Assembly: GCA_964366295.1 (NCBI GenBank)
Contig: CAYITH010000001.1
Location: 1 to 27,958, forward strand
Length of the DNA: 27,958 bases
Direction of reading: 5' to 3'
Source of the DNA: Candidatus Woesearchaeota archaeon
Lineage (GTDB): Archaea; Nanobdellota; Nanobdellia; Pacearchaeales; GW2011-AR1
Positions within the stretch are counted from its first letter, which is position 1. Every line of letters starts with the position of its first letter. Positions 11,801 through 27,958 of the stretch are shown in pieces. The notes beneath the pieces were generated by a model that was given only the letters and a program-made list of their open reading frames with translations, did not search any database and was not told the origin of the DNA. The position numbers and the translations under genes are program-made.

Positions 11801-12097
11801 ATGCGCTATAATTTATTATATTTAGAAGAAACTGATTTAGAAATTCGGTTATCAATGCAGGGAGTAATGAGAGATCTTGGAATGGTTTCGAAAGTAGTCG
11901 AGATACCTATAGTTTTATATGAAGGCCGTATTCCGGCTGTTAATAAAGGAGCCATGAAAAGCTTGGAAGGAAGAGGACATATTGAAGTCAGGCCTGTTCA
12001 TAGAAACGGAACTATTTACATAGGATGTTATTTAACTAAACAAGGGGAAGAATATCTCTCCAAAAAAGAGAGAAAGTTACGGAAAGCTGTTAAGTAA
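11801..12097 (+). CDS. Small hypothetical protein, possible winged-helix fold
   Basis: MKSLEGRGHIEV...YLTKQGEEYL resembles the recognition helix/wing 'L..G.I....LT..G...L' pattern. Confidence 0.5.
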   Translation: MRYNLLYLEETDLEIRLSMQGVMRDLGMVSKVVEIPIVLYEGRIPAVNKGAMKSLEGRGHIEVRPVHRNGTIYIGCYLTKQGEEYLSKKERKLRKAVK

Positions 12098-12216
12098 ACC
12101 CTAAAACTTAACATAAAGATTAGCAGGATAATCCTTAATTCCTAAATTTTTTCTCTCCTCATTAAACCATCTAACCAAAGCATAAGCTTTTTAACTGCGT
12201 TTTTTCTCATATAGAT

Positions 12217-12372
12217 ATGGCGAAAGACAATAAAATAAATATTCCTGGAATGGGCGGGCTTGTGCGGTATGATGAGGAGCAGGATACAAGATTTCACCTT
12301 AAACCCGAGCATGTTGTTGTGCTTGTTATCGCAATAATACTTTTCTCTATCTCGTTGAGGATATTCTTCTGA
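12217..12372 (+). CDS. secG: Preprotein translocase subunit Sec61-beta (SecG), 51 aa; absent from the ORF track
   Basis: Translated by hand: MAKDNKINIPGMGGLVRYDEEQDTRFHLKPEHVVVLVIAIILFSISLRIFF. The GLVRY.EE...LKPE motif plus one C-terminal TM helix is typical, and it lies 7 nt upstream of nac. Confidence 0.9.
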   Translation: MAKDNKINIPGMGGLVRYDEEQDTRFHLKPEHVVVLVIAIILFSISLRIFF

Positions 12373-12379
12373 GGCAAAA

Positions 12380-12703
12380 ATGTTTCCAAATATAGACCCA
12401 AGAAAAATGCAGTCAATGCTTAAACAGCTTGGAATGCAGCAGGATGAAATAGAGGCAACACGCGTAATAATAGAACAAGCAGACAAGAAGATAATAATTG
12501 AAAACCCGAGTGTTGCAAGGATAAAAATGCAGGGACAGGAGAGCTGGCAGATAAGCGGAAATGCGAGGGAAGAAGAGAGCAATAATGAAGGAGATATCAA
12601 GACTGTAATGGAAAAAACAGGCAAGAGCAGAGAAGAAGCGGAAAAAGCTCTTAAGGAATCAAATGGTGATTTGGCAGAAGCAATATTGGGATTGAGCAGT
12701 TAA
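12380..12703 (+). CDS. nac: Nascent polypeptide-associated complex protein
   Basis: IDPRKMQSMLKQLGM, A.RVIIE, C-terminal UBA-like DIKTVMEKTG.SREEAEKALKESNGDLAEAILGL. Confidence 0.93.
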   Translation: MFPNIDPRKMQSMLKQLGMQQDEIEATRVIIEQADKKIIIENPSVARIKMQGQESWQISGNAREEESNNEGDIKTVMEKTGKSREEAEKALKESNGDLAEAILGLSS

Positions 12704-12713
12704 TTATTTTTAT

Positions 12714-12857
12714 TTTCAAATTGGTTTAATACCCTGCGGTCTTGCCGCAGTCAATTTGAAAAGACTAAAATTGCCGGTCGCTGAAAGCGAAAAAATTTGC
12801 GATGAATACCCTATGCTCTTGGCATAGGGATAGCAAATTTTTAGGCAATTTTTTTAT
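12714..12857 (+). mobile_element. Non-autonomous palindromic element, copy 1 (IS200/IS605-like ends, PATE/MITE-like)
   Basis: Homologous to 16058-16198 and 27876-27958. Two AATACC-preceded hairpins with TCTTG loops, a GAA mini-hairpin, and TTTAT at 12709-12713 and 12853-12857. Confidence 0.75.
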
Positions 12858-12901
12858 GCATAATTCGTATGTTTTAAAAGGCTATAAAATACAGAAAGTA
12901 A

Positions 12902-13261
12902 ATGGCAAAAGTATTATTGGTTGAAGATACTCCTGAGTGCAGAATACTAGCGGTTGCTACTTTAACACACAAAGGTCATGAAGTTATTGAAGCTAAAGAC
13001 GGAAGTGAAGGATTGGAAGCTATTGCTCAAAATCCAAAAATTGCATTAGTGGATTATAATATGCCTGTAATGGACGGATATGAATTTACAAGAGCAGTGA
13101 GAACTGATGATAAATATGCATTACAAAGAGATACTGTTTTAATAGGAATTGGCGATTTTCCAGTGAATAAAAGAGAATTCCTTACAGATAGAAGATGCTT
13201 TGAAAAGCCATGGAGTCTTAAAGAGCTAATTGAAGCTGTTAATGAATATTGTTCTGTTTAA
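12902..13261 (+). CDS. Stand-alone response regulator receiver (CheY-like)
   Basis: VLLVED acidic pair, phosphoacceptor D51 in LVDYNMPVMDGYE, and KP at 102-103. Confidence 0.88.
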   Translation: MAKVLLVEDTPECRILAVATLTHKGHEVIEAKDGSEGLEAIAQNPKIALVDYNMPVMDGYEFTRAVRTDDKYALQRDTVLIGIGDFPVNKREFLTDRRCFEKPWSLKELIEAVNEYCSV

Positions 13262-13320
13262 AATCCTACTAACCGCTATAGCATATAAATGCTTATTAAG
13301 TTAGAGCTTGATTATTATTC

Positions 13321-13800
13321 ATGGAGAAGAAATTTGAGAACTATGTTATTTCATTGGCTAGAGCAGAAAAAGCGCTTCGTGTGGGAGAGCATATAAAGCA
13401 TGTAACTTTTCCTCTGCTGAAAGATACAAAACTTCTTCTTAAGATATTAACAGAGTCTTATCTCTCAATAATGCACGCTATAAATGCAATATTGCAATAT
13501 GAGTATGCTATGAAAAGAACCAGCATAACGAGCAATGCAAGGGATAACTTGATTATATTCAGAAATAAATGCGCTGGCAGATACGGAATAAGCGAAAAAG
13601 AGTTGGGAGAGCTGAGAGAGCTTATTTTTCTTGCTGAAATGCACAAAAAAAGCCCGCTTGAGTTTACAAAACACGGCAAAATTGTTATAATGAGCGACTC
13701 CAGCCAGGTTTATACAATTGATTATGAAAACATGGCTGATTTTTTGGAATTGGCGAAAGGAATGTATGAGAAGGCAAAAGAGGGGATTAAGAGATTATAG
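13321..13800 (+). CDS. Hypothetical protein (159 aa), mostly helical, possibly HEPN-like
   Basis: Clean ORF with an upstream TATA-like site. LARAEKAL...YLSIMHAINAIL loosely resembles HEPN N-terminal helices (weak). Confidence 0.7.
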   Translation: MEKKFENYVISLARAEKALRVGEHIKHVTFPLLKDTKLLLKILTESYLSIMHAINAILQYEYAMKRTSITSNARDNLIIFRNKCAGRYGISEKELGELRELIFLAEMHKKSPLEFTKHGKIVIMSDSSQVYTIDYENMADFLELAKGMYEKAKEGIKRL

Positions 13801-13833
13801 AAAACTTTTTAATTAGAAGACCTTTGTTAAAGT

Positions 13834-14964
13834 ATGCTTAAACAATGGGCTTTTGTCCTTGTATTTGTAGAATTTTTCATTGCTTTTGCGAGTCTTTCTT
13901 ATGCGCAAAATATCTCGGTAAGCTATGACTATTCAGCAATTGCAGGAGTGAATTTCAGCTTTTCTCTGGAGCTGGTTAATTTTTCAGCGGACACTTATGA
14001 TATTAAAATAGACATAACAAACAGCACCGGCAGCAGGATAAGCCGGATTTATGACAATGGAACATGGAAATCCACTAATTTTTATATTGTTAAGGCAATA
14101 AATCTAAGTGAAGCCAGCAGAGCAAATTTCAGCTTGAATACAACTGAAGATTATACCGGAGTGGCAAATATTACCATCAAGATTAGAAACAGCCAAAATA
14201 ATAATGATATGGAAACCTTTGTTGGATATTTCTTGAATGTGACTCCAAAAACAGAAACGCAAATCAATTCCTCGCAAAACAGCACAAACCAAAGCGCACA
14301 AAATAATACTGGAACCGCGCAAACTCCAGCCAGCTCTGGCAATACTACGCAAACAACAAGCGTTATTGAGGAAAGTGAAGGCATCAGCTTAAAGTTTCCG
14401 ACTAATGTCAGCGTTAGCGAGATTTTTAATGTGACTGTAAAAATGTTTAACTTGAAAAATAAGCCTTATGATTTAAAAGTTGAGTTGAGAATTGGCGAGA
14501 CACTTGTGTCGGAAGTTTACAACGAAAGAGACAAAGAGTGGCAGTCTTCTTTCTACTACCTGCAAAATTTCACAGAGTCAAATGGAAACCAGATGAGAAA
14601 TGTCAGTTTAAGGCTAAAAAACAATGTTGTGAAGTCTGACAGAGATGCTATCTTGAGCGTTAAATTGAGAAGAAGCGGAACACAAATTTCTTCAAAGAGC
14701 GAAGATATAAAGATAACATATGCCGATAAAACAGCGGGTGAAAAATACCTCAATGAGACAACGAATGAGACAATAACTAAAATTGAGGATAATAAAATCT
14801 ACCTAAACAAAAAAGAAGAGACACAAGGTATAAAAAGTACTCCATACAGAAGCTTTAAAGAGTTTGTAAGAGAATATGCAATTTATGGATTTGCCATACT
14901 TAGCATTTTTCTTATAATAATACTGAAAGATGAGCGAGAAAATACAGGCGAGAATAATAATTGA
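13834..14964 (+). CDS. Membrane-anchored surface glycoprotein with an internal domain duplication
   Basis: Signal peptide (…ASLSYA|Q), about 20 N-x-S/T sequons, an S/T/N/Q-rich linker and a C-terminal TM helix (YAIYGFAILSIFLIIIL). Confidence 0.8.
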   Translation: MLKQWAFVLVFVEFFIAFASLSYAQNISVSYDYSAIAGVNFSFSLELVNFSADTYDIKIDITNSTGSRISRIYDNGTWKSTNFYIVKAINLSEASRANFSLNTTEDYTGVANITIKIRNSQNNNDMETFVGYFLNVTPKTETQINSSQNSTNQSAQNNTGTAQTPASSGNTTQTTSVIEESEGISLKFPTNVSVSEIFNVTVKMFNLKNKPYDLKVELRIGETLVSEVYNERDKEWQSSFYYLQNFTESNGNQMRNVSLRLKNNVVKSDRDAILSVKLRRSGTQISSKSEDIKITYADKTAGEKYLNETTNETITKIEDNKIYLNKKEETQGIKSTPYRSFKEFVREYAIYGFAILSIFLIIILKDERENTGENNN

Positions 14965-15460
14965 AATGCTTGGAAAGCCAGCAGAGCACTTAATTGAAAC
15001 AATGAAGCAGTTAATTGAGCAGTTGGGAAAAGAGCCGAATACTGCTGTTGCGGAGTATAAAATAGCCGCTCCAAAACAACTGGAAAACTCAATGTTCAGT
15101 ATATTCGGCGAAGTAAGTCTTGAAGCAAACAGCGTCAACACATTATTTTCGCTTCTTTTCAGCTATATGCCCTCACATATCGAGATATTATCCCCTGCTG
15201 AAATTAAGATGACAAATTTTCAGTTCAATGAGATTGTCAATGAACTGCAAAGAAGACTGCATAAGTATGATGAAATTGCAAAGAGAGTTTATTTTGAGAA
15301 TACTATATTAAGAAGGCAGATGGAAGAAGCAGGTATAAAGCCAGCTGTTGAAGAAATGGTGCAGAGAGCGAAAAAGGGAGAAGCTGAAAAAGAGACAGAA
15401 GAGCAAGGAAGAAAAAAGAAGAAAGGCGGAAAAAAAGGAAAGAAAAAGAAAGCGGGGTAG
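14930..15460 (+). CDS. Hypothetical protein (176 aa) with a Lys-rich tail
   Basis: Overlaps the upstream gene by 35 nt with normal composition. No function recognised. Confidence 0.75.
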   Translation: MSEKIQARIIIEMLGKPAEHLIETMKQLIEQLGKEPNTAVAEYKIAAPKQLENSMFSIFGEVSLEANSVNTLFSLLFSYMPSHIEILSPAEIKMTNFQFNEIVNELQRRLHKYDEIAKRVYFENTILRRQMEEAGIKPAVEEMVQRAKKGEAEKETEEQGRKKKKGGKKGKKKKAG

Positions 15461-15513
15461 AGATGAAGAAGAATTATAGAAAGGTTTGTATATAGATATA
15501 TACCTATATGTAT

Positions 15514-15686
15514 ATGGCAAGACTAATTAATGTTTCAGATGAAGTATATGAAAAATTGACAGGATTATTGCTGCTATATGCCTCAAAAATAATATTGAAC
15601 TACTAACATATAACCTTAAACATTCTGAAAGACTGGAGAGTTTTGGACTTATGGGTAATTCTGTTGGTTATATCAAAGGACGCTGA
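15514..15686 (+). pseudogene. Deletion-fused vapBC remnant
   Basis: 15514-15561 encode MARLINVSDEVYEKLT (VapB N-terminus). In another frame 15564-15650 encode IIAAICLKNNIELLTYNLKHSERLESFGL (PIN C-terminus). Neither is in the ORF track. Confidence 0.72.
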
Positions 15687-15721
15687 AAATTTACCAAAAA
15701 TGCGCCTTTGATAGATAGAAG

Positions 15722-15754
15722 AGGACAATAAATCCGGTAGAATATTATTGTCCT
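15722..15754. repeat. 10-bp perfect inverted repeat
   Basis: AGGACAATAA-N13-TTATTGTCCT. Confidence 0.6.
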
Positions 15755-15787
15755 TGACTATAGTATTGTTTTTTCAGAATTATACAG

Positions 15788-15834
15788 ATAGAGAATTCTG
15801 GACAAAATGTATTCTAATTACCAGAATTCTCTAT
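15788..15834. repeat. 14-bp perfect inverted repeat
   Basis: ATAGAGAATTCTGG-N19-CCAGAATTCTCTAT. Confidence 0.75.
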
Positions 15835-15854
15835 ATTTTGGCAAATTAAGTTAA

Positions 15855-16052
15855 TCATTTGTTTTTTAGCCCTCTAATAGATCTTAACTTTTCTTCTCCG
15901 TTTTGCATTCGAGCTATCTTTTTCAATGCTCTTTGCGCCATCTCAAGCTGAGAGTTTATGAATGCGGAGTGCTGTTTTTTCCAAGTCTTGTCAGTCAGGA
16001 CAAATTTTGCCCAGCGTTCTATCTGTTCTGAATGAGAGGAGTCATGCGTCAT
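15855..16052 (-). CDS. Small helical hypothetical protein (65 aa), likely partner of the nucleotidyltransferase-like gene
   Basis: SHSEQIERWAKFV..W.K.H..FINSQ. Same strand as and directly downstream of the NTase gene once the inserted element is removed. Confidence 0.7.
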   Translation of the reverse strand: MTHDSSHSEQIERWAKFVLTDKTWKKQHSAFINSQLEMAQRALKKIARMQNGEEKLRSIRGLKNK

Positions 16053-16057
16053 TTTAT

Positions 16058-16198
16058 TTCAAAATTTGGGTTTAATACCTCGCAGCTTGCTGCGAATTTT
16101 GAAAGACTGAAAATGCTGGTTGTCGAAGACAAAAAAATTTGCGATGAATACCCTACAGCTTGCTGCGGAGTTAGCAAATTTTTAAGCATTTTCTTTAT
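16058..16198 (+). mobile_element. Non-autonomous palindromic element, copy 2
   Basis: 88/89 nt identical to copy 3 over 16052-16140. TTTAT at 16053-16057 and 16194-16198. Removal rejoins the NTase stop and the next ATG. Confidence 0.8.
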
Positions 16199-16764
16199 TC
16201 TTTCATCCTTAATTTAATTATTTTATCTTTAATATTCCGAATTTCCGCTTCATTAATTTGTTCGGCGTAGATAATACGAAGGTGTTTTGCATCTTCCAAG
16301 TCTTTCTCTGACTTTAGATATTCTTCCTTAAATGCTATATTCATTTCTATGCTTGAAAACCATAAATCCAAGCCGGTAAAAGGAAGTTTTTTTCTTGTTT
16401 TTAACTGCAGTTCATCTAGAGAATCTTTTGCAAACTTGAGTTCCATTTCAGGCAAAAATTCTCCTTTTCTTATATAGCGAACACTCAATCCAGCGGACAA
16501 ATAGTCACTATAGATTTTTTCCGGCGAAGCTGACTGCATGCACTCAAAACCGGATTTTTCCAGCCAATTATGCAGCAGCACAAACCTCTCACGAGGTATC
16601 TTTTCTATTATCATGTCTATATCTTCTGTGCCGCGGCTCCTGCCGTGGGCAATTGCGACAAAACCAGAGACTATAATGTATTTGCAGTATTTTTCTACTT
16701 CTGCTGAAAAGTCTTCTGCGAATTTATCAAGTATGCTTTTGTCATCTATACTGCGTGTTGCCAT
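16195..16764 (-). CDS. Nucleotidyltransferase-superfamily protein (AbiEii/DUF6036-like)
   Basis: YIIVSGFVAIAHGRSRGTEDIDMII matches the G..A...G..R.T.D.D pattern. C-terminal KD..DA..L helix. Confidence 0.7.
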   Translation of the reverse strand: MATRSIDDKSILDKFAEDFSAEVEKYCKYIIVSGFVAIAHGRSRGTEDIDMIIEKIPRERFVLLHNWLEKSGFECMQSASPEKIYSDYLSAGLSVRYIRKGEFLPEMELKFAKDSLDELQLKTRKKLPFTGLDLWFSSIEMNIAFKEEYLKSEKDLEDAKHLRIIYAEQINEAEIRNIKDKIIKLRMKE

Positions 16765-16866
16765 GGATAAAAAAAGCAGGCAGATTATATAAATGTTAGC
16801 GCTATGGGATAGTGTATACTAATTGTCACTGCATAAATTTATATAGTTAAAAATATCTACCTTTTT

Positions 16867-17064
16867 ATGGAACAACAGAGCATCATATTGAGATTAGACA
16901 GAATAGAAGAAACCTTAAGAGAAATAAAAAATAGTATGGTAGATGTAGATGTTATTATAACTGAAGAAGAAAGAGCAATGCTTAATGAAAGTGTAAAAAA
17001 TGAAAAAGAGGGAAATCTTATTTCTTTAGAGGCGATAAAAAATGTTCGAAATAAGGTTAGATAA
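16867..17064 (+). CDS. Putative antitoxin
   Basis: 65 aa, acidic; ITEEE..ML.ES......G.LISLE pattern; overlaps a relE-like gene by 23 nt. Confidence 0.7.
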   Translation: MEQQSIILRLDRIEETLREIKNSMVDVDVIITEEERAMLNESVKNEKEGNLISLEAIKNVRNKVR

Positions 17065-24081: not shown

Positions 24082-27000
24082 TTAATACACCTTCGCCTTG
24101 GCGATGCATGAACTTGGCTCGTTGTTCCAGATGTCACGGCATTTTATGTAGTATGTAAATTCAGAGTCTGCTGAAGTTGTATGTTCTATGGAAAGACCAG
24201 ACATTTTTGTGCCATTGGCAAAGTTGAAATTGCAGACACTTGTTGAAAAGGCGCATTCTGAATTTTCATCTGTTGAAATGTAAAGAGCGCTTCCACTTTG
24301 ATAGATTCTTGTTAGTTTTGGCGGAGTTGTGTCAAGCTCTATGGTGAATTGCGTTGAACGCTCAGCGGTGTTGCCTGCTGTGTCTGTGCATTTAACTGCG
24401 ACATTATGAGTTCCTCGGAAAAGGCTTAGACTGCCTTGCGTGTGAGTTGTTCCAGCTGTGGTGAAAAATGAGGCGAATAGCAAATTATTAAGTTTGTATT
24501 CGCAGAGCGCGTTGCCGTTGTCAATTCCGCCTGTTGTTGCTGCGCTGATTGTGACAGTAATTGGCTCTATGCCGTTGACTATTTTGCTTCCATCTGCGGG
24601 AGTGAGAGAGGTAATGTTAAGTATAGATTGAGTTCTTGTTAAGTCATATTTCTGGCTTTGCGTGTTTGCATTTCTCTTTGTCGCGTCTGTTTCCCACGGC
24701 ATATCAAGACAGCGGAAATAAACCGCGTTTTTGTCTCTTAACCCTGTTAAAACTCCCTCGCATCTGAAGCCGAAAATTGTTTGGTCTGCAAGAGATTGGT
24801 GGCATTGCATTGAGTTTTCCATTTCTCCGAAGGATTTGTCTGTTAGACTCCAACGGCAATCTGAAGGCTCGTTTGTGTGCATTTGAATGTTCATCTGTTC
24901 GGAATTAAAGGCAAGTTTTCCAACAGCTGGAGAGAAAGATTTTATTAATGGCGCTGTGCGGTCTGGCTCTGGATTGATGCATGCTTTTATTGAGTATTCG
25001 TTTGTGTTTACATTATTATTTGGGTCTTTGCAACGGACAAAGAATCTTAAATCCTGCACTTGCCTCTGGATTTCGCTTATTCCTGTTTCTGTTTCATGGG
25101 CGAGCGATTCAAGACTTGGAAGTGAGAGTTTAATAGTATGCTCTTTTCCCAAAATTCCTGTGTCAAAATCAATTTCCATTTCCTCAAAAGTGTCTTTGTG
25201 CTCTGTGTCTGCTAAGCATTGCGATGGCTCGTTTGTTTTTACGCCGAGCGTGAAGTCTGTGAATGGGTTAAGGCATTTTTCTATTTCATAGCCGTTTTCA
25301 ATAGTTTTTATCTGCACGCCTGAAGAAACTAATGGAGAAATTACAGGAGGAGATACATCATTAGGGCTAATGTCAACACACTCTTCTTTTCCTGTGCCTT
25401 CATTTATAAGGCGGCATGTTTGGCCAAGAGACTGGCAACGATAAGGCGAGCAAGTTTTGAAGCCTTTTATGAGAGAGCTGTCAGTGCATTTCGAACATTG
25501 CGAACCGCCTGGAGCGGGAAGCCATGCATTGCAAGTAAATGAGACAGTGCGTTCTTTTGTTTCACCGACACCGACAAGTTTCAGTATGCCTGCGAAGACT
25601 GCTACTAATGCTACAACTATTAAGGCTGCGGGGCCGAATGATATTGCTAAGGGTGCGTTGCTACCTACGGCTGCAAATCCTGCACTTACTCCACCTGCTG
25701 CTCCTACTACTCCACCAAAAACTAAAACAGCAGTAGATGCATCTCCTTGTAAGCCGAAGAGTTTTATGAAAATTGTTGCGGACAACATTCCTATAGCAAA
25801 AACTGCGGCTCCATTTGCATAAGCTCCGAGACTAGTGCCTAAAGTAGTGGGTAAAAAAGAGGGGGCAATTTCAGCAGTACCGGCTAATGTTCCTTTTAAA
25901 AGTGCAAAAACGGCTGAAAGACTTTTTCCAGCTATTGCGGCTGCGACAACAGAAGTACCTGCTAATCCTATCGCAGCCATGCTCATTGAATCAACGATAT
26001 CTGAATTAGAGAGGTCAGCTTGGCCTGTGTTTGGATTTGTGGGAAGGCCCATTGCTAAAAGAGTTTCATTTAAACTTTGGGCTTGAATAAATTTATTTTT
26101 TTCTGGAATAGCATCTTCTCTATAATCTGCAATTTCGTCTGCGCTCAAGTCTTGGAAACCCCAGCCAGCAATGCGGTAGTTTTTCTCAAACTTGCCGAGA
26201 ATGTTTGCTTTTCCACCGCAGTCGCCTAACGAGGTGCAAACTTTATTCATCTCTGTTGCGAGGCGAGCCATGCAGCCGCAATTTGCTTTGCATTTCCATT
26301 TTCCTAAAATGCTTTTTTGATAGGTCATCTTGCAGGTTGTTGTGGCTTGAGAGCATTGGGTGTCTGCAACACTTGCGAATTCTGGAGTTGAGGTGTCAAA
26401 GCCAGGCGGATACTTAGGAAGGCATAAAGTGAATTTGTAAGGCGGGATGTCATCGTCTGGGTGTCCGCTGTCAATGAGTGTATTGCGTATATAACAATCA
26501 GAGATTTTATCGCAATCATCTTTAAACTCATCTAATACTCCTGGAGAAGTCATATATCGGTTTTGAAACTGGGAATTGACATTAAAACATTCCTGCCAGC
26601 GATTAATACGGCATGAAGCTGATGAAACTTTTTTACCGGCGCCTACCTCTGCATCTGACTGGACGCAAATTTGTTGGCGGTAATCAGAACAACCTTCTGT
26701 AAGAACCTCGCCGTCAATACAGCTGCGGCGCCAGTGCCTGCTGCCTACTACATCTTCTCCATCGCCTAACTTGCTGTCATAAACGCACCATGATTCTCCA
26801 TTTTTTCTTTTTTTTCCGGCCTCATCAACACATTCTGTTGAAATGCATTGCGCTTCGCCAGAAGTTTCTGAACAACGACTGCTTAAAAAATGGTCACAAT
26901 TTCCGCAAGTTTTGCCAATGTTTAGCTGGCTAGGATTGCACGACTGTGCTGGTGACAAGACTCGACCGTTATTCCAACTTTGAAGAGTATTAGAACTGAA

Positions 27001-27783
27001 TATATTTTCCCGATTTCCGCAAGAATCAAACCAGTAAACTTTGTCTTCTCCTTCAACACATGCTTTTTTTACTTGTTTCTGGCAGTTGGTATTAAGCTCT
27101 GGAGCAGAGCATAAAAATCCGTCTTTGAATGATTGAGTATTACCTGTCTGCTGAAGGCATTCTTGCTGTGTTAAAAATTTGCACCCGAGCTCGTTGTTTG
27201 GGCCCGGAATTAAACAAGCGCCTTGCCTTCGTTCTTCTGACAGCAATACACAATCTACCTCATTTCGAATATTCTGGCGAAAATCTTTTTGCATTGCAGT
27301 ATTGCGTGCAAGGTTTTCACAGGCTTTTTCTGTAACAAATGCGGTGTTTTTTCCGAGAATACAACAACCTCTTGCGCAGGCGTCAATGTTGCACTCTGCG
27401 TTTGAACTCCAGATGCCTGCTGGCGATGGGCAAACTGCTTTTGGAGTGTTTGGAGTGCAAGTGCCTTCTGCGCTATTCTGGCAGCATCCAACTCTGCATT
27501 CTGCAAAAGAGCTTCTTGGCCCCGGAAAGCAGGGAGTTTTGCAATTATTGGCGCATTCGCTTGAGGGATATTCCTGACAAGAAACGCCTTGCTTGTTCTC
27601 ACTGCAGGTATAAGTTGGTTGGGCGGCTTGTGCTGAAACTATCGGCGTTGAATAAGAGGCAATAATAAATGCGAAGGCAAAATTTGAAATGAAAAATGTC
27701 AGTATTTCAAAGATGGAAATTGCTTTTCTTGATATAAGGGAAGTGTCCCTTATCAACCCTCTAATTGAGCTATTATTTTTCAT
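24082..27783 (-). CDS. Giant Cys-rich surface/membrane protein B (1233 aa), paralog of A
   Basis: RKA|ISIFEILTFF N-terminus. Shares GESWCVYD, GSRHW, DSCGN, C.PY.CQSLGQ.C.LIN.GTG and TNEP..C motifs with protein A, in the same order. Confidence 0.9.
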   Translation of the reverse strand: MKNNSSIRGLIRDTSLISRKAISIFEILTFFISNFAFAFIIASYSTPIVSAQAAQPTYTCSENKQGVSCQEYPSSECANNCKTPCFPGPRSSFAECRVGCCQNSAEGTCTPNTPKAVCPSPAGIWSSNAECNIDACARGCCILGKNTAFVTEKACENLARNTAMQKDFRQNIRNEVDCVLLSEERRQGACLIPGPNNELGCKFLTQQECLQQTGNTQSFKDGFLCSAPELNTNCQKQVKKACVEGEDKVYWFDSCGNRENIFSSNTLQSWNNGRVLSPAQSCNPSQLNIGKTCGNCDHFLSSRCSETSGEAQCISTECVDEAGKKRKNGESWCVYDSKLGDGEDVVGSRHWRRSCIDGEVLTEGCSDYRQQICVQSDAEVGAGKKVSSASCRINRWQECFNVNSQFQNRYMTSPGVLDEFKDDCDKISDCYIRNTLIDSGHPDDDIPPYKFTLCLPKYPPGFDTSTPEFASVADTQCSQATTTCKMTYQKSILGKWKCKANCGCMARLATEMNKVCTSLGDCGGKANILGKFEKNYRIAGWGFQDLSADEIADYREDAIPEKNKFIQAQSLNETLLAMGLPTNPNTGQADLSNSDIVDSMSMAAIGLAGTSVVAAAIAGKSLSAVFALLKGTLAGTAEIAPSFLPTTLGTSLGAYANGAAVFAIGMLSATIFIKLFGLQGDASTAVLVFGGVVGAAGGVSAGFAAVGSNAPLAISFGPAALIVVALVAVFAGILKLVGVGETKERTVSFTCNAWLPAPGGSQCSKCTDSSLIKGFKTCSPYRCQSLGQTCRLINEGTGKEECVDISPNDVSPPVISPLVSSGVQIKTIENGYEIEKCLNPFTDFTLGVKTNEPSQCLADTEHKDTFEEMEIDFDTGILGKEHTIKLSLPSLESLAHETETGISEIQRQVQDLRFFVRCKDPNNNVNTNEYSIKACINPEPDRTAPLIKSFSPAVGKLAFNSEQMNIQMHTNEPSDCRWSLTDKSFGEMENSMQCHQSLADQTIFGFRCEGVLTGLRDKNAVYFRCLDMPWETDATKRNANTQSQKYDLTRTQSILNITSLTPADGSKIVNGIEPITVTISAATTGGIDNGNALCEYKLNNLLFASFFTTAGTTHTQGSLSLFRGTHNVAVKCTDTAGNTAERSTQFTIELDTTPPKLTRIYQSGSALYISTDENSECAFSTSVCNFNFANGTKMSGLSIEHTTSADSEFTYYIKCRDIWNNEPSSCIAKAKVY

Positions 27784-27875
27784 GTTAGATAAACTGAAAA
27801 TCGATTTAATTGAAAATCTAAAGACAATAGATAATGTGAAGGCATACTTGATATTATATGGGGTAAAGTTTTTAT

Positions 27876-27958
27876 TTCAAAATTTGGGTTTAATACCCCG
27901 CAGCTTGCTGCGAATTTTGAAAGACTGAAAATGCTGGTTGTCGAAGACAAAAAAATTT
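27876..27958 (+). mobile_element. Non-autonomous palindromic element, copy 3 (cut by the window end)
   Basis: Near-identical to copy 2, with TTTAT at 27871-27875. Confidence 0.75.

Follow-up and report, generated by a model that had tools for sequence, protein, structure and literature searches.

The window analysed here, i.e., the whole 27,958-nt stretch of contig C1 from Candidatus Woesearchaeota archaeon (Pacearchaeales; GW2011-AR1; GCA_964366295.1, CAYITH010000001.1, positions 1-27,958 of the forward strand), carries at 16058-16198 a 141-nt element that is very probably a non-autonomous, gene-less IS200/IS605 transposon of the PATE type (palindrome-associated transposable element), which would move by single-stranded DNA (peel and paste) transposition. 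PATEs are already known from Haloquadratum walsbyi, e.g., HqIRS46 (Dyall-Smith et al. 2011, PMC3119063), and the mini-element is a very clean example of this kind. It was assigned to the PATEs because the features that can be tested by sequence were found, whereas readings as a RAYT-dependent repeat, a DDE-type MITE or an omega-RNA carrier each fail a defining feature. In agreement, the non-autonomous, PATE-like Y1/HUH family proposed in the initial annotation was supported by the element borders, a resident TnpA, the empty site of relatives and the guide/site pairs. The assembly (G000) derives from a groundwater metagenome and comprises 725 kb in 102 contigs with 36% GC and a completeness of approximately 80-81%; contigs near-identical to the window bear the label Hain-H51-01um. 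The archaeal nature of the genome is reflected by a NAC-like gene in the window (12380-12703). The nearest named carriers of the mini-element family are Pace-, Woese- and Nanoarchaeota MAGs.

Three copies of the family are present in the window, all on the plus strand. Copy 2 (16058-16198, subfamily A) is preceded by a TTTAT at 16053-16057 that belongs to the flanking DNA (TAM, or C_L), and terminates in an element-encoded TTTAT at 16194-16198 (TEM, or C_R). Copy 1 (subfamily B, 144 nt; TAM TTTAT at 12709-12713, element at 12714-12857) lies behind the NAC-like gene (12380-12703), at a distance of 5 nt from its stop, and ends in TTTAT at 12853-12857. Copy 3 (subfamily A; TAM TTTAT at 27871-27875) is 99% identical to copy 2 and is cut by the contig end, so that only the first 83 nt of the element (27876-27958) are contained. 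The initial annotation was thus correct in placing TTTAT directly 5' of all three copies and at the end of both complete ones. Its statement that terminal inverted repeats are absent holds as well; no inverted repeat joining the termini was found, also on inspection by eye. Approximately 90 nt separate copy 3 from the start of the downstream 1233-aa gene (24082-27783, minus strand), and copy 3 may therefore occupy the promoter region of this gene.

With lengths of 141-290 nt, the elements are too short for a protein. The single ORF of at least 50 aa overlapping copy 2 (16032-16217, plus strand, 61 aa) has both ends in flanking DNA, indicating a by-product of the insertion rather than a gene of the element.

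Profile searches with PF01797 gave a single match in the genome, a gene product of 147 aa encoded at C48:2101-2544 (114 bits). This protein scored 129 bits with the NCBIfam IS200 model NF033573 (cut-off 55). It aligned with the TnpA of ISDra2 from Deinococcus radiodurans (2XM3) at E = 9e-19, with the HUH motif (HVH) and the catalytic Tyr in place; ISDra2 TnpA (2XM3, 2XMA) is its closest solved relative, and the TnpA of IS608 is only distantly related (E = 2e-10). Judged by these alignments, the C48 gene is an intact IS200-type Y1 (HUH) tnpA. With the models tried, no further transposase was found in the assembly; as the genome is only approximately 80% complete, another transposase could be the real mobiliser.

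The resident insertion sequence (IS) containing this gene spans C48:2027-2585 (559 bp), with TTTAT-7 nt-AATA-hairpin at the left and GATG-hairpin-AGG-TTCAC at the right end. Its 20-nt left hairpin is one base off the canonical right hairpin of subfamily A (copies on C14, C86 and C28), of which the right hairpin of copy 2 is an imperfect variant. A Y1 TnpA with matching ends, for which the initial annotation had suggested a search, was therefore found at least with respect to its left end, which consists of AATA and a near-identical hairpin. The IS sits directly after a decayed mini-element, and its left end may therefore be truncated. Other genera of the same family contain homologues of the C48 TnpA with 63-75% identity. 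The right end, composed of GATG, a hairpin, 3-4 nt and TTCAC, is common to the resident IS and seven loci from six further genera (G014, G161, G093, G046, G100, G063 and G073), with compensatory changes in the hairpin. In the sister genus G100, the tnpA-bearing IS is present in at least nine copies, mostly at contig ends, and all right-end junctions, at least nine of them independent, stop exactly after TTCAC. A complete IS in another archaeon (L149) shows TTTAT, 14 nt and an AATA-hairpin at the left, and GATA, a branched hairpin, TAT and TTCAT at the right end; its left-end layout matches that of the mini-element. The mini-element cannot be derived from the resident IS by a simple deletion. 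Its left linker has 16 nt versus 7 nt in the resident IS, and at the right end TTTAT follows 24 nt after the hairpin in the mini-element versus 3-4 nt for TTCAC in the IS.

The presence of one tnpA in the assembly versus dozens of small palindromic repeats, together with a decayed repeat copy beside it and the possible truncation of its left end, would also fit a REP/REPIN-like repeat that is kept by a domesticated single-copy RAYT instead of an insertion sequence, for which the same Y1/HUH chemistry is expected. REP/REPIN-RAYT systems (PMC3333891, PMC8266576, PMC3337134) share with the family described here the small palindromic repeats, a Y1/HUH enzyme recognising a hairpin plus an adjacent tetranucleotide, and the one enzyme gene per genome. 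However, the C48 protein matches the IS200 model at 129 bits and the REP-associated model NF047646 at only 24.9 bits (cut-off 80), and sister genera carry its close homologues (63-75% identity) as ISs in multiple copies with defined ends (at least nine copies in G100). Moreover, the repeats are 141-290-nt two-ended units with a target motif, not 20-40-nt REPs arranged as inverted doublets. A domesticated RAYT is thus very unlikely.

The strongest sequence-level support for a PATE mobilised by single-strand transposition is the agreement between guides and cleavage sites. The cleavage sites of IS608 are recognised through pairing with the tetranucleotide located 5' of each hairpin (PMC3201880, PMC5934647). 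The pairs C-3:G-35 and T-4:A-34 were described with A-2 unpaired (PMC3201880), i.e., the first guide base pairs with the second base of the site, the second guide base with the first, and the third base of the site is an unpaired A; the pair A+17:T-4 was described as well (PMC5934647). According to this rule, AATA predicts TTAT, GATG predicts TCAC and GATA predicts TCAT, and all three combinations were observed: AATA/TTAT at both ends in G000 and in G017 from another genus, GATG/TCAC in seven genera, and GATA/TCAT in L149 and others. The fourth bases of guide and site are reportedly paired in IS608 as well. The third guide base is T in all guides found here versus A in IS608. In copy 2, the proposed guides AATA precede both main hairpins, at 16074-16077 (+17 to +20) and at 16147-16150, as the initial annotation had described; its application of the rule to AATA was borne out at both ends, and the two further guide/site pairs of related elements agree with it. 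In relatives with a TATA guide (G100, G161, G063 and G046), TTAAT was found 3 nt upstream in five of six cases; the pair TATA/TAAT was left out of the confirmed pairs, because the left boundary of the IS could not be fixed there. Beyond the model systems, the family represents an unusually clean natural test of this guide/cleavage code of IS608 across archaeal genera.

From these data, the following course of transposition is proposed. A TnpA dimer supplied in trans would bind both top-strand hairpins while the DNA is in single-stranded form, and the AATA located 5' of each hairpin would pair with TTAT, thereby defining both cleavage sites. Cuts 3' of the flanking and of the terminal TTTAT would yield a single-stranded circle and a donor resealed with one TTTAT, and the left guide would then pick a new TTTAT for integration. 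As both guides are AATA, the two cleavage sites would be identical and mimic a 5-bp duplication. In addition, every copy would provide a fresh target at its 3' end, which would explain head-to-tail arrays. Insertion directly after the terminal TTTAT of another copy was found in three cases (P = 0.004); these three insertions and the resident IS located after a decayed copy fit such a built-in target at the right ends.

The single strand of copy 2 is predicted to fold into two domains. The left domain (16058-16103) is closed by an outer stem (16058-16066 with 16095-16103) and contains the inner hairpin CGCAGC-TT-GCTGCG (16081-16094; +24 to +37 of the element), which shows compensatory changes; a conserved GGG/CCC mini-stem may hold the left AATA in its loop. 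The right domain (16109-16193) forms a three-way junction, in which P3 pairs 16109-16117 with 16185-16193, P4 is a hairpin at 16120-16132, and P5 pairs 16133-16142 with 16174-16183. A predicted internal loop of this junction contains the right AATA, which is separated from TTTAT by 24 nt of stem sequence and followed by the imperfect TnpA-type hairpin (16151-16170), which is located 29-48 nt from the right end. The predicted foot of the left domain abuts the flanking TTTAT, and that of the right domain abuts the terminal TTTAT. Folding as single-stranded DNA gave z = -5.4 for copy 2 and z = -9.1 for copy 1, and an alignment of 10 copies from four genomes revealed compensatory changes in 18 of 40 predicted pairs.

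A six-stem structure as strongly conserved as this one, including its unpaired motifs, could also point to a PATE that mainly carries a stand-alone guide (omega/reRNA-like) or another structured regulatory RNA, with mobility being secondary; PATEs encoding omega RNAs have been documented (bioRxiv 10.1101/2023.03.14.532601). We regard this as very improbable. Searches for TnpB/IscB in the approximately 80% complete assembly gave only 13 bits with PF07282 and nothing with PF01385, and the omega-RNA reading was set aside on this basis. Rfam had no match to the window at the gathering score, and at a permissive E-value only noise was obtained (snoR31 and RAGATH-26, E ~0.6; best E 0.63). Furthermore, the copies occur in either orientation relative to neighbouring genes, with no bias seen among those of the family, and the conserved parts are those required by single-strand transposition. 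For annotation, repeats of the family should not be labelled as regulatory RNAs or CRISPR-like features.

BLAST analysis of the whole assembly identified 60 regions with a total of 7.4 kb (1.0% of the genome), 14 of which touch a contig end, corresponding to about 50-60 copies; like C1, numerous other contigs end within copies. One mobile family thus accounts for approximately 1% of a very small genome, for many contig breaks and for at least one split gene pair. The initial annotation had assumed at least two subfamilies, and two, A and B, were recovered, together with longer forms of 200-290 nt that contain optional internal modules. Copies of subfamily A are 88-97% identical to copy 2, with full-length copies of 92-97% identity on C14, C80, C86, C10, C22 and C23. 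The five full-length copies of subfamily B (copy 1 and those on C95, C17, C10 and C7) share 99-100% identity with each other.

Element ends were located by pattern search, giving 44 left ends (43 scorable) and 51 right ends genome-wide. Left ends were preceded by TTTAT in 32/43 and by TTAT in 36/43 cases; at a background of 0.47% TTTAT per position, the binomial probability of this enrichment is P ~1e-65. The right end finished in TTTAT in 41/51 cases. The TTTAT borders noted for the window copies hence extend to further copies. Beyond the border pentamers, conservation drops sharply and the base composition is ordinary, the left limit being position -5.

The left and right pentamers differ in origin. 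Among 28 complete elements, 26 end in TTTAT irrespective of the left flank, and 20 have TTTAT on both sides. In six of the 28, the left pentamer deviates (GTTAT, ATTAT twice, TTAAT, TTTGT and TTGTT), and the right end is the canonical TTTAT in all six; one more, truncated, deviant case was left out of this comparison. The two elements with a deviating right end are decayed copies with a left flank of TTTAT. As deviant left pentamers are never repeated on the right, the left motif is selected in the target and the one on the right is encoded by the element, which is the arrangement of IS200/IS605 elements (PMC3201880, PMC5934647); with TAM and TEM being identical, the borders only look like a duplication. 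Taken alone, the TTTAT flanks on both sides of 20/28 complete elements look like a target-site duplication, as expected of a classical cut-and-paste MITE whose DDE transposase duplicates TTTAT as its preferred 5-bp target, but this alternative, named already in the initial annotation, is largely refuted and can practically be dismissed, since there are no terminal inverted repeats, the six non-canonical left pentamers pair with TTTAT and never with themselves, the unlike end motifs of the related tnpA-bearing IS (TTTAT left, TTCAC or TTCAT right) argue that the family makes no duplications, and profile searches of the assembly (~80% complete) with three DDE Pfam models, PF01609, PF00665 and PF13358 (DDE_Tnp_1, rve and DDE_3), revealed no cognate transposase.

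The insertion site of copy 2 was compared with the corresponding loci of relatives. On the minus strand, copy 2 is located between a 189-aa ORF upstream (16195-16764), the TAA stop of which lies inside the terminal TTTAT of the element, and a 65-aa ORF downstream (15855-16052). Removal of 16058-16198 gives GAA TAA A ATG between the two ORFs, with the TAA-A-ATG spacing that is also present at 2884-2890, both as described initially. The gene pair is overlapping or adjacent in three other genera (G021, G006 and G018). Orthologues of the 189-aa ORF show 68-70% DNA identity there, and those of the 65-aa ORF, identified by tblastn (41-47% identity), directly follow or overlap the 189-aa gene. The junction is ATGGTAA in G021, with the ATG of the small gene overlapping the TAA of the 189-aa gene; in G006 the genes overlap as ATGA, and in G018 the junction is GAATAAAATG, exactly the 10-mer predicted by deleting copy 2. 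The claim that removal of copy 2 restores a gene junction is thus substantiated by the intact pair in three genera and by the identical 10-mer in G018. The contiguous junctions of the relatives indicate that copy 2 inserted into a tight junction, with the terminal TTTAT re-creating the TAA stop; the two co-directional genes flanking this junction are probably co-translated.

The search for an empty site was successful in relatives from these three genera and negative in the reads and contigs of the population itself. In four groundwater runs, the contigs compared over 12000-17000 showed occupied junctions only, and the exact 24-mer of the reconstructed empty site had zero matches in the metagenome contigs. 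Likewise, all 16 contigs from the same population were collinear with the assembly, without any presence/absence difference. Recent activity of the family is suggested by the near-identical copies; no presence/absence polymorphism was found among the contigs compared.

The single orientation of all copies applies to the window only, as oppositely oriented copies are found on C10, C22 and C48, on C10 and C22 even less than 1 kb apart. Across the 102-contig assembly, neighbouring copies were co-oriented in 13 of 17 pairs (P = 0.025), which is only suggestive of a lagging-strand, i.e., replication-dependent, strand bias.

In comparison with the PATEs of Haloquadratum (PMC3119063), the family has in common the lack of inverted terminal repeats, near-terminal palindromes related to those of IS200/IS605 elements, a targeting oligonucleotide of 4-5 nt at the left and a conserved terminal oligonucleotide at the right end, and homogeneous subfamilies with more than 90% identity. 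The 52-bp single-palindrome 'terminal-only' forms of Haloquadratum have a counterpart in G017, where versions of approximately 115 nt and a single-hairpin version of 52 nt retain the layout of TTTAT, AATA-hairpin and terminal TTTAT. In both cases, the palindromes are hit by a small repeat (SMR-A in Haloquadratum, the 55-nt module H here). In contrast, the host here is a small-genome groundwater archaeon, a single guide and pentamer are used at both ends, giving the borders their duplication-like appearance, and the right end forms a three-way junction. The associated element is of the IS200 type (tnpA only), whereas the IS1341/TnpB type dominates in haloarchaea. With one guide at both ends and a 52-nt single-hairpin form, the family may offer a compact substrate for programmable single-stranded DNA insertion by an archaeal TnpA.

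IS608 from Helicobacter pylori (PMC3201880, PMC5934647) shares the Y1/HUH TnpA, subterminal hairpins on one strand with a tetranucleotide guide 5' of each, and the position of the left cleavage site in the flank and of the right one inside the element; its left guide is located at +16 to +19, versus +17 to +20 here. Differences are the unequal cleavage sites of IS608 (TTAC left, TCAA right), its tnpA and tnpB genes, and the distance of the right site, which is 10 nt from the hairpin foot in IS608 and 28 nt past the inner hairpin here, where it abuts the foot of the larger domain. ISDra2 is autonomous and carries tnpB, in contrast to the tnpA-only situation here. The target of ISDra2, TTGAT, is a pentanucleotide of the form TTNAT, and so is TTTAT. 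The PATE-like ISGst elements of Geobacillus stearothermophilus (Meers et al. 2023, bioRxiv 10.1101/2023.03.14.532601) are likewise protein-less, with ends like those of resident ISs; a single TnpA is predicted to mobilise them in trans, and they were described with TAM, TEM and DNA guides. Unlike the mini-elements, they often encode omega RNAs for TnpB/IscB; neither such a nuclease nor an Rfam omega-RNA match was found here.

Parts of the element are distributed far beyond the host lineage. The 24-nt left-end motif TTTAATACCCCNCAGCTTGCTGNG, in which a GGG/CCC mini-stem holding AATA is followed by a hairpin, was detected at more than 114 loci in species-representative genomes of both domains, with hosts among the Spirochaetes, Deltaproteobacteria, Planctomycetes, Omnitrophota and several DPANN lineages including Pace-, Woese- and Nanoarchaeota. 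At 53 of 111 motif loci, the distance from the end of an upstream TTAT to AATA is 13-17 nt, and at 47 of these the upstream motif is TTTAT. The full window element has homologues at several loci from Pace- and Woesearchaeota, and their outer stems show compensatory changes. In the deltaproteobacterial loci, the motif stands in a different context. A woesearchaeotal copy (L194, 1692-1828) has the whole right hairpin module inverted with respect to its sister copy in L144, with AATA on the other strand.

Module H is a 55-nt palindrome with perfect arms of 17 bp, and all of its 26 copies are located inside TnpA-type hairpins of the mini-transposon and nowhere else. They directly follow AATACCCC, are flanked by CC on either side and are spread over three hairpin contexts. 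Examples are the copy at C22:5139-5193 (L014, 1686-1740) and an inverted one at C49:5519-5573. Module H is similar to the SMR-A repeats of Haloquadratum, for which PATE palindromes are the target. A two-layer parasitism, in which a cross-domain mini-transposon lineage was colonised in this genome by module H as the DPANN counterpart of SMR-A, is conceivable, yet we regard it as rather unlikely. If true, it would imply a general, unexplained mechanism recognising IS200/IS605 hairpins, either a hyper-parasite or a host anti-transposon device. Among these results, module H and the left end conserved across both domains are those that could lead to something new.

Two further small repeat families were observed close to copy 2. 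A search for a tRNA in the high-depth region 15669-15836 was negative; the region consists of a pair of small repeat families. The first (window 15669-15763, ~95 bp) is composed of two hairpins, has imperfect inverted ends and carries TATA at either end; no DDE transposase able to move it was found in the assembly. It has at least 30 matches in the genome and a contig depth of approximately 200 versus approximately 5 for unique sequence. The second (window 15764-15836, ~70 bp) consists of one long hairpin with the end CTCTATA, has at least eight genome matches, and directly abuts the first.
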